A stretch of 64,000 bases of DNA from Phycisphaerae bacterium (lineage in GTDB: Bacteria > Planctomycetota > Phycisphaerae > WQYP01): assembly GCA_035548175.1 (NCBI GenBank), contig DASZTO010000053.1, positions 8,472 to 72,471 on the forward strand, read 5' to 3'. A program made the translations under genes and the position numbers. The notes below the pieces were generated by a model. The model saw only the letters and a list, made by a program, of their open reading frames with translations, was not told the origin of the DNA and did not search any database. Below are positions 53,440 to 57,832 of the stretch, piece after piece; the stretch's first letter is position 1; each line of letters begins with the position of its first letter.

Positions 53440-53883
53440 CCCCGAAAAACGTCATGGCGTTTCGCCCCTGTCTTCCAAGGGAAAGAACGGCCCGAACTTG
53501 CCGAAAGCGACCTGGTTCAGTCCTCTTTCCCCCGTGTTTATTGCGGTGTCAGGCTGTGCCAGTGAATGGCGGGCGGATGTATCACCTGCGATAAGGTCAT
53601 ACACTTGCCGGTGGGCACGAAAGTCTATCTGCAATCGGTGGAATTCGAGGATCACAGCATGATGAGAGAAGGCGGCCGGTTCGTTTCCAAGGCAGCATCG
53701 CAGTAGCAGTCGATCGGCGCTGCGACGGCGACTCGGCAGAGTCGATGCAAGGTGCAGGCGAACGTGCACGCGGGATGCTGCTGACCATCTTTCCCCACGC
53801 CGGCCGGAAGCACTGCACTTGACGGAGCGTTGATGGACGGGGCGCGGACGGGGAGAATGGGGACGGTTTTTTCAGGAGCTGTT

Positions 53884-54408
53884 ATGGAACGTGGCGAGTT
53901 GGCGGGGCGGGTGAAGGCGGTGGCGTTGCTGGAGGGGGATTTCACGTTGCGGAGCGGAAAGAAGTCGCGGTTTTATTTTGACAAGTATCTGTTTGAGACG
54001 CAGCCGGACATTCTGGAGGCGATGGGGAAGGAAATTGCGGCGAGGATTCCGGCGGGCACAGCGAGGATCGCGGGGCCGGAGCTGGGGGCGGTGGCGCTGG
54101 CGGCGGCGGCGAGCCTGGCGTCGCGGTTGCCGTTCTTCATCGTGCGGAACGCGAAGAAGGAGTATGGGACCAGCAAGACGATTGAAGGGAAGTTGGAGGC
54201 GGGGGAGAAGGTGGTGCTGGTGGAGGACATCGTGACGACGGGGGGACAGGTGATCGAGGCGATCAAGAACATCCGGGCGGCGGGGGCGGAGGTGGTGAAG
54301 GTGATCGTGGCGCTGGATCGGCTGGAGGGAGGGCGGGAGAATATTTTGCGCGAAGGGCAGGGGGTGGCGTATGACGCGATATTGACGAAAGAGGATATGG
54401 GAATGTAG
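53884..54408 (+). CDS. pyrE: Orotate phosphoribosyltransferase
   Basis: PRPP-binding VVLVEDIVTTGGQV, and LLEGDFTLRSGKKSRFYFDKY. Confidence 0.85.
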   Translation: MERGELAGRVKAVALLEGDFTLRSGKKSRFYFDKYLFETQPDILEAMGKEIAARIPAGTARIAGPELGAVALAAAASLASRLPFFIVRNAKKEYGTSKTIEGKLEAGEKVVLVEDIVTTGGQVIEAIKNIRAAGAEVVKVIVALDRLEGGRENILREGQGVAYDAILTKEDMGM

Positions 54409-54449
54409 CTTCCCCCCCCCCGCCGAGCGGGAAAAATTGGGGTAGTGGT

Positions 54450-54896
54450 TCAATTGGGGGGAGCGGTGTATTTCCCGCCGAGGAAGTCGGGGATGGGTTG
54501 AACCTGCCCGGCGCGGTTGATGCAGGCGATGGTGGATTCTCCGGTGCACAGCAGCATGTTGGTGTCGCGGCGGCGCAACTCGTAGGCGTGGTCGATGCGG
54601 ACGTGGGTTTGCTTGATCACGCGGGTGAGAAGTTCGAGTTCGTCATCGTAGCGGGCGGGCTTTTTGAAATTGATGGTGATCCTGGTGACCACGAAAAGCA
54701 CGTCGCGTTCCTCGAGTTCGCGGTAGCTCACGCCATAGGCGCGCAGCAGTTCCGTGCGGCCCATTTCGAAAAAGGGGAGGTAGTTCGAGTGGTGCAGAAA
54801 GCCCATCGGGTCGCATTCGACGTAGCGGACGCGCAAGACAATGCGGCCTTCGACGGGGCCCGGGGGAGGGGGCGCTTTGGGTGCGGGGACGCTCAT
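54450..54896 (-). CDS. Acyl-CoA thioesterase, 4HBT/YbgC-like hotdog fold
   Basis: VRYVECDPMGFLHHSNYLPFFEMGRTELL (catalytic Asp context) and typical hotdog length. Confidence 0.8.
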   Translation of the reverse strand: MSVPAPKAPPPPGPVEGRIVLRVRYVECDPMGFLHHSNYLPFFEMGRTELLRAYGVSYRELEERDVLFVVTRITINFKKPARYDDELELLTRVIKQTHVRIDHAYELRRRDTNMLLCTGESTIACINRAGQVQPIPDFLGGKYTAPPN

Positions 54897-55165
54897 CAGG
54901 AGATTCCCGTGAGGCCCATGCCGGGCTCGTCGTAGAACAGGCGCGCGAAGGCATCCGGGTCGAAGCTGCCGCGGAAGCGTTCGACGCCATCGACCAGCAC
55001 GACGGGGATGGCGTCGCCATATTTTTCCAGCAGCCCGAGGTCCTGCGTGATGTCGACCACTTCGATGAGCACGGCGGTGCGCGCGCCGACGACTTTCTGG
55101 GCGACTTCGAGGGCGGCTTCGCAGAGGTGGCAGCCGGGTTTGGACATGATGGTGATTTTGTGCAT
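54896..55165 (-). CDS. Glutaredoxin-like small redox protein (thioredoxin fold, CxxC)
   Basis: MSKPGCHLCE active site in an 89-aa protein. Start and stop each overlap a neighbour by 1 nt (TGATG). Confidence 0.65.
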   Translation of the reverse strand: MHKITIMSKPGCHLCEAALEVAQKVVGARTAVLIEVVDITQDLGLLEKYGDAIPVVLVDGVERFRGSFDPDAFARLFYDEPGMGLTGIS

Positions 55166-56325
55166 CAGGGCTCCTTGCGGCGGCGCGCGACGAAAGGCCG
55201 GCGTGTGAAAGCTTTCTGGCCGTTGCGAAGGGCTTCTTCGAGCCGGCGTTCGGAGGGAAGAAGCAACCGGTATTCCGCCGCCATTACTTTATTGGGAAGG
55301 CCGTCGAGAGAGTAGCGGGCGACGGCCTGATTTTGGCGGGCGCAGAGGATGAGGCCGACGGGTGCGTTTTCATCGGGCTGGGTCCAGTGCTCGCTCGCGT
55401 AGTTGAGGTACATGTGCATTTGGCCGGCGTCGGCGTGGGTGAACTTGCCGACCTTGAGGTCGATGACGACGAGACATTTGAGGCGGCGATGAAAGAAGAG
55501 CAGATCGATGCGGTACCAGTCATCTCCGATGCGGAGACGGCGCTGGCGCCCGACGAAGGCGAAGTCGTTGCCGAGTTCGAGGAGAAATGTTTCGAGTTGG
55601 CGAATGAGAGCTTCTTCGAGATCGGATTCGGAGTATTCGTCTTTGAGGTCGAGGAATTCGAGAACGAAGGGATCCTTGATGGCTTGCTCGATCGTGAGAC
55701 GCTCATCGGCTCGGGTGCGGCGGCCATCGCGCAGGAGTTTGCCTTTATGGATCGACATAGAAGTCCGCTCGTAGAAGAGCGTGCTGATCTGGCGGTCCAA
55801 CTGGCGGACTGACCAGCCGCCGAGCATGGCTTCGCGTTCGTAAAACGCGCGCGCGTCAGGCGAATCCGCGCGCCGGACAAGAAGAACGTAATGTGACCAG
55901 GAAAGCGGAAAAACCGGCCCGGGCTGGGGAGGCCGGAGAAGGATCGCGGATTTCCGAGACACTGTCTCGGAAATCTCCTGTGGCAATTTCCGAGACACTG
56001 TCTCGGAAATGTTCTGAGGCGTCGAGTAGCAGAGATAAAATCGCCGCATGGTTTCCAGATTGTCGGCGGAAAATCCCCGGCCGTAGCGCTTGGTCAAATC
56101 GCGCGCCAAGCGCTTAAGCAGGCCTTCTCCGTATGCGGCGCGATTCTTTCCGGCCTGTTCAAATTCCACGATACGCCGGCCAATGTACCAGTAGCCGGTC
56201 GTCATCGCGGCGTTCACCTGCCGCGCCGCCGCCGTACGTGCGCCGGTCAGAAGGCGACAGACATCAGCAAGCATGCCGGCATATGCGGAGGAGACCAACG
56301 TGGTTTTCTTTTTCGCCGGTTTCAT
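55165..56325 (-). CDS. PDDEXK-family nuclease-like protein, YhcG/DUF1016 family
   Basis: Collinear with E. coli YhcG: WSHYVLL, AFYEREAMLGGWSVRQLDRQIS, KDPFVLEFLDL, SESDLEEALI, and catalytic D..(I/V)DLK (DLLFFHRRLKCLVVIDLKVGKFTHADAGQMHMYLNY). Start taken at MKPAKKK (56325). The longer version to 56415 would overlap the upstream gene. Confidence 0.8.
   Translation of the reverse strand: MKPAKKKTTLVSSAYAGMLADVCRLLTGARTAAARQVNAAMTTGYWYIGRRIVEFEQAGKNRAAYGEGLLKRLARDLTKRYGRGFSADNLETMRRFYLCYSTPQNISETVSRKLPQEISETVSRKSAILLRPPQPGPVFPLSWSHYVLLVRRADSPDARAFYEREAMLGGWSVRQLDRQISTLFYERTSMSIHKGKLLRDGRRTRADERLTIEQAIKDPFVLEFLDLKDEYSESDLEEALIRQLETFLLELGNDFAFVGRQRRLRIGDDWYRIDLLFFHRRLKCLVVIDLKVGKFTHADAGQMHMYLNYASEHWTQPDENAPVGLILCARQNQAVARYSLDGLPNKVMAAEYRLLLPSERRLEEALRNGQKAFTRRPFVARRRKEP
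55951..56009. repeat. 36-bp tandem duplication containing a perfect 23-bp palindrome (tttccgagacaCtgtctcggaaa) inside the yhcG-like CDS
   Basis: Copies at 55951-55973 and 55987-56009 are identical. They are translated in frame as ISETVSRKLPQE / ISETVSRKSAIL. Confidence 0.85.
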
Positions 56326-56353
56326 GGAGACTTCTATAGCGACTTGGACAAGT

Positions 56354-57832
56354 TTAATCGAGTTTTTTAAGCCAGATGTTGCGGGTCGAGACTTTCGTCG
56401 TGGCTTCGATTTCAATGCCGATGAGGCCGCGCTGGTTGTTCGAGGAATCGGGATCGTCGTCGATCATGGCGGACATGAGCCGGCCGTTGATGATGTGGAG
56501 GAAGGTTCCGCCGCGGGCGATGACGATGTACTGGTTCCAGTCATTTTCCTTGATGAACTTGCCGAGGTCGGCGCGGTCGCCGATGGCGCCCATGACGCGG
56601 CGCGGCCCCATGCCGAAGCCTTCGACGACCTGGCCGCGGAAGGCCATGATGCGCATCGGGGTATTTTCCGAATAGAACTGGCCGGAGTACATGGCGGTCG
56701 AATCGCGGCTGGGCCAGAAGTCGGCCTGGGGTCCGGTCATCATCCAGTCGAGGTTGACCGGCCCGTTGCTGGCGGTGACGTTGGGGGCGATCGCGGTGAG
56801 CCAGGGGATGCCGGTCTTGGAGCGGTACTGGATGCCGCTGCCGCCGGCGCCTTCGATTTTGATTTCGCACTTGAGGGTGAAATCTTTGGAGAGGCTGGTG
56901 CGGCAGGCGATGTAGGTGTTGCCGCTGGGATTTTCCGCGGTGGATTCGCCGACGATTGCGCCGTCTTCGACGCGCCAGAATTTCGGGTTGCCGTCCCAGC
57001 CGTTGAGCGTTTTGCCATCGAAGAGGGAGACGTAGCCGGTGTGGTCGTTGAAGTCGTAGGGGAGGGGCTCGTGGAAGGAGCCCGAGACGAGCACGCCGTT
57101 GTTGGCGGCGAGTGCGCGAAGCTGTTCTTCATCGAGTTTTACCGGCGAGCTTTGCAGGGCTGCGAGTTGCTTGGCGCGCAGGCTGGCGAGGCCGGCTTCT
57201 TCGACCGCCAGCAGCTCGACCTGCTGTTGGACCACGTGTTCATCCTGCATTTCAGCCAGCGCCGCATAGGTGATGCCGGTGCGGACGCGCGCGACGTCGG
57301 CCATCATTTTCTGCTGCGCGCCGGTGAAATCAGTAAGGGCGGTGACCTGCCTGGAGGTCATGTGGGGAATCTGCGGAGCGTTGGCGATGCGCGGGTTGGA
57401 CGCGGCGGCTTCGCGATCGGCGAGGGCCTTGATCTGCTCGGAAGTCAGCGGGGCATCGGACTGTTGTAACTTCTCGAGACCGGCGACACGGGCATAGGCG
57501 AGGGCGAGCTCAGCGGCGCTGACGGCGGCAAGTTTTTGCTGCACGTCCTTTTCGTCGGGCGCGGGAGCGAATTCGGCGGCGAGCAGATCGGTGCGGGCTT
57601 TGGCAAGGGCCTCGGTGGGCTGCGCGAGGGCGGAGGTCATGTCGGCGAGGGCGGACATCTGCCCGGGCGTTGCGCCGGGAACGGCGCCGCGCCCAAAGCC
57701 GCGGCCCCGCGCGGGAGCGGCGGCGGGCTGCGCGCCGGGTGTGGCCGTGCGTTCCTGCCCCCAGGCGACGCCGAAGAACCAGGCGGCGGTGGCGACGGCG
57801 GCGAGCGTGAGCAGGGTCGGCGCGGTTTTCAT
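56354..57832 (-). CDS. Secreted protein with C-terminal DUF1080 (3-keto-disaccharide hydrolase / LamG-like) domain
   Basis: Signal peptide. Helical repeat region. C-terminal FDGKTLNGWDGNPKFWRVEDGAIVGES...RGLIGIEIEATTKVSTRNIWLKKL matching the DUF1080 signature. Confidence 0.75.
   Translation of the reverse strand: MKTAPTLLTLAAVATAAWFFGVAWGQERTATPGAQPAAAPARGRGFGRGAVPGATPGQMSALADMTSALAQPTEALAKARTDLLAAEFAPAPDEKDVQQKLAAVSAAELALAYARVAGLEKLQQSDAPLTSEQIKALADREAAASNPRIANAPQIPHMTSRQVTALTDFTGAQQKMMADVARVRTGITYAALAEMQDEHVVQQQVELLAVEEAGLASLRAKQLAALQSSPVKLDEEQLRALAANNGVLVSGSFHEPLPYDFNDHTGYVSLFDGKTLNGWDGNPKFWRVEDGAIVGESTAENPSGNTYIACRTSLSKDFTLKCEIKIEGAGGSGIQYRSKTGIPWLTAIAPNVTASNGPVNLDWMMTGPQADFWPSRDSTAMYSGQFYSENTPMRIMAFRGQVVEGFGMGPRRVMGAIGDRADLGKFIKENDWNQYIVIARGGTFLHIINGRLMSAMIDDDPDSSNNQRGLIGIEIEATTKVSTRNIWLKKLD

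Follow-up and report, generated by a model that had tools for sequence, protein, structure and literature searches.

A 25-nucleotide DNA palindrome carried within the reading frame of YhcG/DUF1016-family nuclease genes

The DNA analysed is a stretch of 64,000 nucleotides (nt), hereafter the window, from a Phycisphaerae bacterium (assembly GCA_035548175.1, contig DASZTO010000053.1, positions 8,472 to 72,471 of the forward strand). Its minus strand codes for a nuclease of the YhcG/DUF1016 family whose gene, yhcG, carries two copies of the perfect palindrome ATTTCCGAGACACTGTCTCGGAAAT inside its open reading frame (ORF) (Table 1). Direct reading and a pattern search of the window delimit the palindrome to 25 nt, organized as two 12-nt arms around a single central base (ATTTCCGAGACA-C-TGTCTCGGAAAT). 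The two copies are identical (25/25) and follow each other with a period of 36 nt, which leaves an 11-nt spacer between them. The initial annotation of this DNA had reported a perfect palindrome of 23 bp present twice, 36 bp apart; the duplication and the period are confirmed, while the true length is 25 nt. It had also described the copies as in frame and the ISETVSRK peptide as doubled, which is borne out since both copies lie in phase 0 of the minus-strand yhcG coding sequence (CDS). Copy 2, the left one on the window, pairs out to 27 nt (positions 55949-55975) and is the copy that aligns with the lone palindrome of distant homologues (alignment columns 193-202). Only these two among all 63,975 odd 25-nt segments of the 64 kb reach 12/12 pairs; none has 11/12 pairs and seven have 10/12. 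No further copy was found in the window with up to 3 mismatches allowed, and none in 100 shuffles. Note that the mirror ORF read from the other strand merely arises from the palindromes and is no gene, although it could be mis-called as one.

Table 1. Features of the yhcG locus, in coordinates of the 64-kb window.
Feature	Coordinates	Strand	Residues or product	Remarks
yhcG/DUF1016-family PD-(D/E)XK nuclease gene	55165..56325	-	386 aa	from ATG 56325
DUF1016_N envelope	55765..56262	-	residues 22-187	Pfam 140.7 bits, cut-off 32.8
YhcG_C PD-(D/E)XK nuclease domain	55231..55686	-	residues 214-365	Pfam 195.1 bits, cut-off 32.5
Palindrome copy 1 (5' copy in gene)	55986..56010		codons I106-K113 (ISETVSRK) and first base of L114	12/12 pairs, phase 0
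11-nt spacer TTGCCNCAGGAGAT	55975..55985	-	LPQE (L114-E117)	codes LPQE together with the 25th base of copy 1
Palindrome copy 2 (3' copy in gene)	55950..55974		codons I118-K125 (ISETVSRK) and first base of S126
LSWSHY codons	55888..55905	-	L141-Y146	family-wide anchor
Mirror ORF	55893..56117	+	74 aa	spells ISETLSRK twice

The yhcG product belongs to the YhcG/DUF1016 family, both of its Pfam domains scoring above the gathering threshold, and is identical to protein P0001, 'PDDEXK nuclease, Phycisphaerae MAG'. ORF calling extends its reading frame upstream to a TTG at 56415. The repeats (residues 106-125) lie inside the amino-terminal Pfam envelope, because DUF1016_N spans residues 22-187, and they end 15 residues ahead of the invariant L141-W143-H145-Y146 motif. 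In distant homologues the palindrome is found directly upstream of this LSWSHY segment. The envelope fits 166 residues on 137 profile positions, and the approximately 29 extra residues are read here as probably the added palindrome copy plus an insert ahead of LSWSHY. The end of the Pfam DUF1016_N model itself appears to cover the translation of the palindrome. An AlphaFold model built from 39 homologues gives residues 101-140 a predicted local distance difference test score (pLDDT) of 51-61, mostly as coil. In the alignment of the 39 homologues, D274 and K291 of the predicted catalytic core are invariant and D289 is nearly so. Foldseek comparison to the PDB matches the carboxyl-terminal domain only, to the nuclease domains of NucS, Cas4, AdnA and MGME1; the amino-terminal domain had no Foldseek matches in the PDB, and a PDB sequence search with the YhcG protein gave none either. 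The nuclease domain was previously related to DUF91 and to archaeal Holliday-junction resolvases (Kosinski et al. 2005, PMC1189080). The PADLOC profile PDLC04807, of the candidate defence system PDC-S02, matches YhcG with E = 7e-132.

The palindrome is shared by the relatives of the window gene. About 110 of its 120 best protein homologues (58-67% identity) carry one to three copies of the motif [IK]S[EQ]TxS[RGA][KI] ahead of PLSWSHY. At the DNA level, 80 relatives from more than 15 phyla were compared, including Methanoperedens archaea, bacteria of the candidate phyla radiation (CPR), Cyanobacteria, Akkermansia and Burkholderiales. At least 10 of 12 pairs are formed in 114 of 6,400 phase-0 25-nt segments of the linker, versus about 1 in 10,000 elsewhere in the genes and their flanks, and 79 of the 80 loci have at least one such palindrome, located in phase 0 just upstream of the LSWSH codons. 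The yhcG gene of Escherichia coli K-12 has three copies with a 39-nt period, translated as IHQTMSGE, IPQTPSAE and IWQTLSAK. Each of eight plasmid homologues with 25-43% identity (from Hymenobacter, Clostridium, Klebsiella, Shewanella, Leptolyngbya, Deinococcus, Rhodococcus and Bacteroides) has at least one phase-0 palindrome of 9-12 pairs, such as ATTGTCGCGACAcTGTCGCGACAAT (IVATLSRQ) and ATTGGCCAACAAcCTGTTGGCCAAT (IGQQPVGQ), and in six of them it directly precedes LSWSH, LPWGH or ITWYH. In a set of 80 loci from prophages and viruses, each complete ORF was scanned in any phase for its best palindrome. This palindrome lies at a median of 118 residues before GxGFxF, directly before LSWxH, and in phase 0 in 36 of 48 cases; the sequences are mutually unrelated, as exemplified by ATTTGCTACACAcTGTGTAGCAAAT, ATTGCGTCCGCAgTGCGGACGCAAT and ATTCTCGTATCAcTGATACGAGAAT. 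The exact window palindrome had no matches in viral contigs. The family comprises 25,364 representatives at 50% identity (E up to 0.001). Among homologues the copy number ranges from 1 to 5 and the periods are 36, 39, 48, 51 nt and others, the tandem duplication seen in the window being the usual state of its clade. The homologue alignment, which the initial annotation had proposed as a check on whether the insert is unique, places the element in essentially all members examined. The palindrome is thus a cis-element ancestral to the whole YhcG/DUF1016 family and not a recent insert; it is neither restricted to the window gene nor reduced to one ordinary linker copy in all its homologues.

What is conserved at this site is the symmetry of the DNA. 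When the peptide is held and the synonymous codons are redrawn from each gene's own usage, 5.5 pairs are expected on average versus 9.9 observed, and 37 of 144 peptide-defined instances are perfect versus an expectation of 1 in 10,000. Among 136 distinct palindromes all 12 pairs have changed on both sides, with 357 double-change cells versus 99 in shuffles. The covariation score of 0.61 compares to 0.165 after shuffling, is reached by none of 500 shuffles, and falls to 0.04-0.11 when the partner is slid by 1-3 columns. The residue couplings follow the same rule: E..R alternates with Q..G/A at palindrome positions 7/19, and I..K with K..I or N..N at positions 1-3/23-25. The encoded peptides vary by clade (ISETVSRK in the window gene; ICQTLSGK, ISESVIRK, IVATLSRQ, NGYALRSE and others elsewhere). 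The strongest evidence that DNA symmetry and not the peptide is conserved comes from loci L218 and L220, whose intact 343-aa ORFs have the palindrome at the same place but translated in another frame (EFDTHCVTN and EFARQCLTN); a stop would interrupt L218 if the usual frame were used. Translation in another frame extends to the whole group L218-L222, and locus L224 has a 24-nt even version of the palindrome. The sequence thus drifts freely whereas length, place and Watson-Crick symmetry are kept by paired changes in the arms, and the peptide is a passenger in a loop modelled with low confidence. The suggestion of the initial annotation that the palindrome is a DNA-level feature merely tolerated by the protein is supported. 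The motif [IK]S[EQ]TxS[RGA][KI] might instead be selected as a peptide, its palindromy being a coincidence of codon choice, but this is barely credible: it is present in about 110 of 120 close homologues, while its synonymous sites are tuned to pairing, its residue couplings are those that base pairing demands, the peptides are chemically unrelated across clades, the frame differs in L218-L222 and the region is of low model confidence.

The element so defined is a 25-nt DNA palindrome with A/T-only ends, a G+C-rich middle and a central C or G, placed in frame directly upstream of the LSWSH codons. In 126 of the 136 palindromes positions 1 to 3 hold nothing but A or T, whatever the G+C content of the genome. 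Pairing falls to 47% at positions 0/26, immediately outside the palindrome, and then to 26-29%, so the length is fixed at 25 nt. Towards the centre it is still 96% at positions 11/15 and then 61% at 12/14, which fits an 11-bp stem closed by a 3-nt loop. The base of the stem reads [AT]TT[GC] in 86 of 136 palindromes versus 5% of control windows; speculatively, this matches the resolution consensus of RuvC-type enzymes, and it might be no more than an ATT codon with an S codon after it. At synonymous third positions with the partner fixed, the ratio of observed to expected is 2.29 for Watson-Crick pairs, 0.30 for G:T, 0.29 for A:C and 0.24 for other combinations; the respective values in the distant set are 2.42, 0.16, 0.21 and 0.16. 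Read on the sense strand, the centre is occupied by C in 74 and by G in 66 cases (57 and 49 in metagenomes), so the element has no preferred orientation. Because G:T is depleted like the other mismatches and C and G are used at the centre with near-equal frequency, the constraint acts on DNA, or on both strands, and is atypical for an mRNA stem. Finally, independent decay of the copies would leave 7.8-9.5 of the 80 loci without any copy of at least 10/12 pairs, and only 1 locus is in that state (P about 0.002-0.0003).

In E. coli the palindromes are, as a side effect, hotspots for in-frame copy-number change and breakpoints of rearrangement. The yhcG linker region is matched in 3,962 of 5,426 complete genomes, with alleles of either one or three copies. 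Three-copy alleles are the majority and one-copy alleles occupy 3 of 30 evenly spaced sample rows. The one-copy allele of O157 strains (AR-0428, L290:1253-1300) differs from that of K-12 (L081:8131-8233) by 78 nt, in frame, with the junction CCATTG|CCCTGG at a microhomology of 3 nt. In 725 of the 5,426 complete genomes, including E. coli B, yhcG homology stops at the last base of palindrome 3, at the junction GCCAAAT|TGAGAGG (L291:1625-1660, E. coli B strain C2566; NZ_CP014268.2 near 3936137). Beyond it lie about 470 nt of unrelated DNA with a 101-aa ORF that is annotated 'transposase' and has no Pfam match. In one strain an IS1 junction is found at base 4 of a palindrome. The recombination hotspot varying linker length that the initial annotation offered as an alternative agrees with these alleles, with the truncations at the palindrome end and with the one to five copies of homologues. 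Shuffling of domains at the linker found no support, the identity discordance between amino- and carboxyl-terminal domains (standard deviation 0.073) being close to that of the C1-versus-C2 control (0.064). Inversion of the spacer between two copies was rejected, since none of 1,325 pairs of same-length spacers was inverted-similar. It was also observed that K-12 YhcG (L081:8240-8262) reads PLPRSTY where O157 reads PLPWSTY. The family consensus has W (PLPWSAY, PLSWSHY), and the tryptophan replaced in K-12 is invariant in the alignment of 39 homologues; the K-12 laboratory allele may be impaired by this W to R change.

Palindromes were also found outside intact genes. The exact 25-mer of the window occurs in at least 120 metagenome loci; of 120 such loci, 107 have it inside yhcG genes, four in short yhcG remnants and about nine without recognisable yhcG flanks. 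Orphan copies remain perfect outside recognisable genes and have no flanking sequence in common. Most of them look like remnants of the yhcG linker, judging from what adjoins them: flanking yhcG residues survive beside the palindrome in L137, L178, L184 and L190, and L118 has an orphan palindrome followed by the LPQE spacer, with the break where copy 2 would begin. An array of four to five different yhcG-type palindromes (ISETVSRK, ILQTLSAK, IFQTVSEK, IRQTLSAK and a weaker one) is found at L110:4824-5047, with spacings of 81, 78 and 39 nt that are multiples of 3 and no yhcG coding sequence on either side. Locus L040 has two orphans among toxin-antitoxin modules upstream of yhcG.

Three other loci with orphan palindromes have features of their own. 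Locus L207:3650-5600 has three occurrences of the 3' end of an htpX-like gene (...THPPIAKRIMALEAMAYQAKTAG), two of which are shifted. Between them lie first a yhcG remnant reduced to the linker, with a perfect palindrome, and then a distant yhcG gene, a pattern that resembles serial insertion at a single site. At L144:686-771 the exact 25-mer lies in an 85-nt A/T-rich spacer dividing two ORFs, in a fragment of 39% G+C; the flanking ORFs look, by their sequences, like consecutive domains of MetH (homocysteine-binding and pterin-binding). At L155:2272-2296 the orphan lies 14 nt past the stop of a higA-like helix-turn-helix gene (Gp49/HigB-HigA pair), a distant yhcG lies about 220 nt downstream of the orphan, and a different hairpin repeat, AACCCGACAGACCCTTGTCGGGTT, is found ahead of both modules (L155:1449-1516 and 2470-2510).

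The interpretation favoured here, to which we assign a probability of about 0.5, is that the palindrome is an ancestral DNA-level element acting as a shape-read hairpin or cruciform of a mobile nuclease gene. The intrastrand structure would be either a cruciform or a hairpin whose 11-bp stem is closed by a 3-nt loop, formed when the gene is single-stranded or negatively supercoiled, for example during replication, behind RNA polymerase or on entry of single-stranded DNA in the course of transfer. It would be recognised through its shape, not its sequence. The most economical candidate for the reader is the gene's own product, a predicted PD-(D/E)XK nuclease whose closest relatives appear to be NucS/DUF91, Cas4-like and Holliday-junction-resolvase-like enzymes; this part of the reading, self-recognition above all, is tentative on its own, the odds being somewhat against it. 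A control or self-recognition site inside the ORF would travel with a horizontally mobile and potentially toxic nuclease gene independently of any particular promoter. The double, compensatory changes would stem from arm-to-arm template switching, with selection retaining at least one good copy per gene.

A more specific proposal is that the physiological ligand or substrate of the YhcG nuclease is a hairpin or cruciform formed within its own ORF; it is rather unlikely. As a ligand, the site would titrate or govern the nuclease whatever the promoter context, and the nuclease would be released when a phage alters supercoiling or destroys the host DNA. As a joint, it would be a structure-defined site comparable to attC, the recombination site of integron cassettes, where cutting and rejoining of the gene or its halves would take place. 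The latter version would account for the base-exact junctions at palindrome ends (the 725 E. coli genomes and L118), for the linker-only remnants of L207 and L110 and for orphan palindromes at domain boundaries of other genes (metH in L144). If true, nuclease and structured DNA site would form a self-contained module in one gene.

Several points weigh against a shape-read element. Cruciforms with 12-bp arms extrude poorly in vivo. The K-12 copies have 1-2 mismatches, perfection thus not being obligatory, and the signal for retention of one good copy is weak and is gone at the 12/12 threshold. An RNA role that needs a perfect duplex, for instance for a double-strand-specific reader, may be compatible with the wobble test. 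The palindrome sets were partly picked by pair count, so that the shuffle statistics overstate significance, and these statistics ignore phylogeny and horizontal transfer, the sequences not being independent. Template switching alone can also yield perfect arms and apparent compensatory changes in the absence of function (PMC5941160, PMC8794818).

This last point leads to the main rival explanation, which retains an appreciable minority of the probability, namely a functionless, neutral palindrome perpetuating itself in a tolerant linker and kept perfect by template switching. Each point change would be reverted or copied to the other arm, mimicking compensatory evolution; the origin would perhaps be an intergenic hairpin captured at a domain-fusion joint, and the copy-number changes and breakpoints would be ordinary palindrome instability. 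Strict Watson-Crick symmetry with neither wobble nor strand preference is what templated copying predicts, the peptide lies in a low-confidence loop, and perfect palindromes outlast the gene in fragments. There is also precedent in published work, which argues that perfect inverted repeats of Proteobacteria are conserved through template switching and that this process can create and maintain stems (PMC5941160; PMC8794818). Its hallmarks (perfect arms, double changes, no wobble or strand bias) are present at this site but equally expected of a selected DNA hairpin. A neutral process accounts less readily for the fixed 25-nt length with its sharp boundaries, for A/T-only ends even at 65% G+C, for the same codon position down to 25% identity in Bacteria and Archaea, and for the lack of comparable palindromes elsewhere in the same genes. 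Single copies decay, yet one locus is without a good copy versus 8-9 expected, and mismatches stand uncorrected in E. coli alleles. Selection in addition to template switching is favoured by the constant length, by the A/T ends and by the retention of one good copy.

A hairpin acting in the mRNA, as a translational pause between the domains, a site for RNase III or stability, or an RNA restraining the nuclease, is improbable. The last form, an antitoxic RNA lying inside the toxin ORF, would be reminiscent of type III toxin-antitoxin systems, and the 36-nt period recalls ToxI-type repeats. The RNA stem is very stable (-47.5 kcal/mol for the 101-nt region, z = -5.9), sits at a domain boundary, and all of its 12 pairs covary. 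Against this stand the depletion of G:U to the level of other mismatches, the equal use of C and G at the loop centre of the sense strand, the variable periods, and the orphans that are perfect outside genes without common flanks. An Rfam scan assigned no family: the best match was mir-999 with 26.9 bits versus a gathering score of 58, and such sub-threshold, microRNA-like matches were rejected since any perfect hairpin would give them. A scan for terminators and promoters found nothing at the palindromes, whose stem is followed by TCC or TTG and no T run. Some homologues have AAA...TTT variants that are more terminator-like; the window palindrome is not of that type.

The protein-binding operator proposed in the initial annotation is very unlikely. 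It would be a duplex site bound by a dimer, of the YhcG helical amino-terminal domain or of a host regulator, acting as an intragenic roadblock with co-evolving specificity. Perfect two-fold symmetry over a footprint-sized 25 bp, an intolerance of wobble that suits duplex recognition and a core AGAC/GTCT common to the copies of one gene in 23 of 34 two-copy genes are in its favour. Nevertheless, arm positions 1-7 differ between the copies in 27 of these 34 genes, and across the family, with each copy still symmetric; this disfavours an operator because uncontacted positions need no symmetry while contacted ones could not differ within a gene. The core varies among distant clades (e.g. GCGACA, TACGCA, CAACA), copy spacing is variable with no fixed helical phasing, and no conserved partner or regulator gene was found near yhcG among 118 neighbouring ORFs. 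Since arms differ within genes, cores and periods vary and no neighbour is conserved, a single sequence-specific reader of the arms is unlikely, and intrastrand pairing or templated copying explains the symmetry better.

A recent in-frame insertion into the window gene followed by tandem duplication is highly improbable. The inserted DNA would be akin to repetitive extragenic palindromic (REP) sequences, MITEs (miniature inverted-repeat transposable elements) or Rickettsia palindromic elements (RPEs), the first two of which the initial annotation had considered. The window copies are identical over 25/25 positions, and about 9 of 120 metagenome loci have the same 25-mer without a recognisable yhcG gene around it, among them the L110 array. 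This is countered by the homologous codon position of the element in essentially all members examined, down to 25% identity, by the resemblance of several orphans (L137, L178, L184, L190, L118, L110) to linker remnants, and by the viral contigs, in which the exact pattern has no match. A dispersed REP/MITE repeat was likewise rejected for the 64-kb window, which holds no other copy and shows neither terminal inverted repeats nor target-site duplication at the element.

The genomic context of yhcG differs among its carriers. The 118 neighbouring ORFs include HsdS (10), HsdM (7), HsdR (5) and integrase (3), type I restriction-modification (R-M) functions being the commonest yet a minority. In Klebsiella and Shewanella plasmids (L084:1-475, L085:1-475) a site-specific integrase gene overlaps the yhcG start by 4 nt in an operon-like arrangement, and in a Bacteroides plasmid (L089:1-405) an integrase gene lies 66 nt upstream of yhcG. 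In the window (53830-57832) yhcG stands alone among housekeeping-type genes, with no R-M or mobile-element gene near. Its neighbours are a phosphoribosyltransferase (PRTase) gene, a 4HBT thioesterase gene, a Glrx-like gene overlapping the yhcG stop and a DUF1080 gene 29 nt upstream. The yhcG gene has 59% G+C versus 65% for the window.

The YhcG/DUF1016 family is very large; it occurs in E. coli K-12, is common in type I R-M operons and mobile elements, and is listed as a candidate for phage defence. A DNA symmetry held more tightly than the encoded protein is a testable clue to how yhcG genes are controlled, recognised or moved, for which E. coli supplies natural one-copy, three-copy and truncated alleles. 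With unusual clarity, a conserved 'protein motif' is here dictated by a constraint on nucleic acid, which is a warning for the annotation of motifs and domains. Were the palindrome neutral, it would be among the deepest documented cases of palindromes perpetuated by template switching within coding sequence.

The element has features in common with several known systems. The attC sites of integrons are palindromic, conserved in structure over sequence and read as folded single-stranded DNA, and the yhcG element likewise keeps its symmetry while its sequence is free. However, attC sites are 57-141 nt long and imperfect, with extrahelical bases and R/L boxes (GTTRRRY), lie at cassette ends outside ORFs and need IntI, whereas the yhcG element is a perfect 25-mer inside an ORF, without GTTRRRY, and integrases make up only 3 of its 118 neighbours. 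Identity to attC was rejected given the missing boxes and extrahelical bases and the location in an ORF. RPEs and in-frame MITEs are palindromic DNA translated within genes and tolerated by the protein, as is the yhcG palindrome. RPEs are approximately 100-150 bp long and secondary insertions in many unrelated genes of one genus; the yhcG element has 25 nt and occupies one homologous codon position of one family, ancestrally across phyla. REP sequences, together with bacterial interspersed mosaic elements (BIMEs) and the REP-associated tyrosine transposase (RAYT), share with it short G+C-rich, hairpin-capable palindromes linked to a nuclease-type gene, and orphans or arrays such as that of L110. 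They are intergenic, number hundreds per genome and flank rayT, whose product is an HUH enzyme, in contrast to an element within an ORF, with no other copy in 64 kb and a PD-(D/E)XK enzyme. The ToxI RNAs of type III toxin-antitoxin systems derive from repeats of approximately 36 nt, arranged in tandem next to the gene of a toxic nuclease. Those are direct repeats upstream of the toxin ORF that yield a processed RNA, and the toxins ToxN/AbiQ are RNases; the yhcG repeats are palindromic, inside the ORF, supported by evidence at the DNA level and associated with a PD-(D/E)XK nuclease. An array of clustered regularly interspaced short palindromic repeats (CRISPR) was rejected in view of only two repeats, with an 11-nt spacer, in frame in a CDS, and a tyrosine or serine recombinase core in view of the single-base centre, of arms that vary within genes, of the lack of spacer inversions and of a discordance between amino- and carboxyl-terminal domains no larger than in the control.

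Two further comparisons concern palindromes in coding sequence and their upkeep. In Nematomorpha mitochondrial genes perfect coding inverted repeats have both arms translated, and their description (PMC6649704) acknowledges the conflict between DNA symmetry and protein. As presented there, these repeats are numerous, lineage-specific, organellar and up to 284 bp long, unlike the short yhcG unit at a fixed site of one prokaryotic family. Quasipalindrome correction by template switching predicts perfect arms, one-step double changes and inverted repeats that persist in the long term (PMC5941160, PMC8794818), but it is a mutational process that alone predicts neither a fixed length, A/T ends and a fixed position nor the retention of a good copy. 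No description of the YhcG palindrome was found in the literature searched on the family and on palindromes or hairpins. In kind, it is a structure-defined palindromic DNA cis-element that resembles several known systems and is a member of none, unusual in being embedded in, and inherited with, the ORF of one very large family of Bacteria and Archaea.

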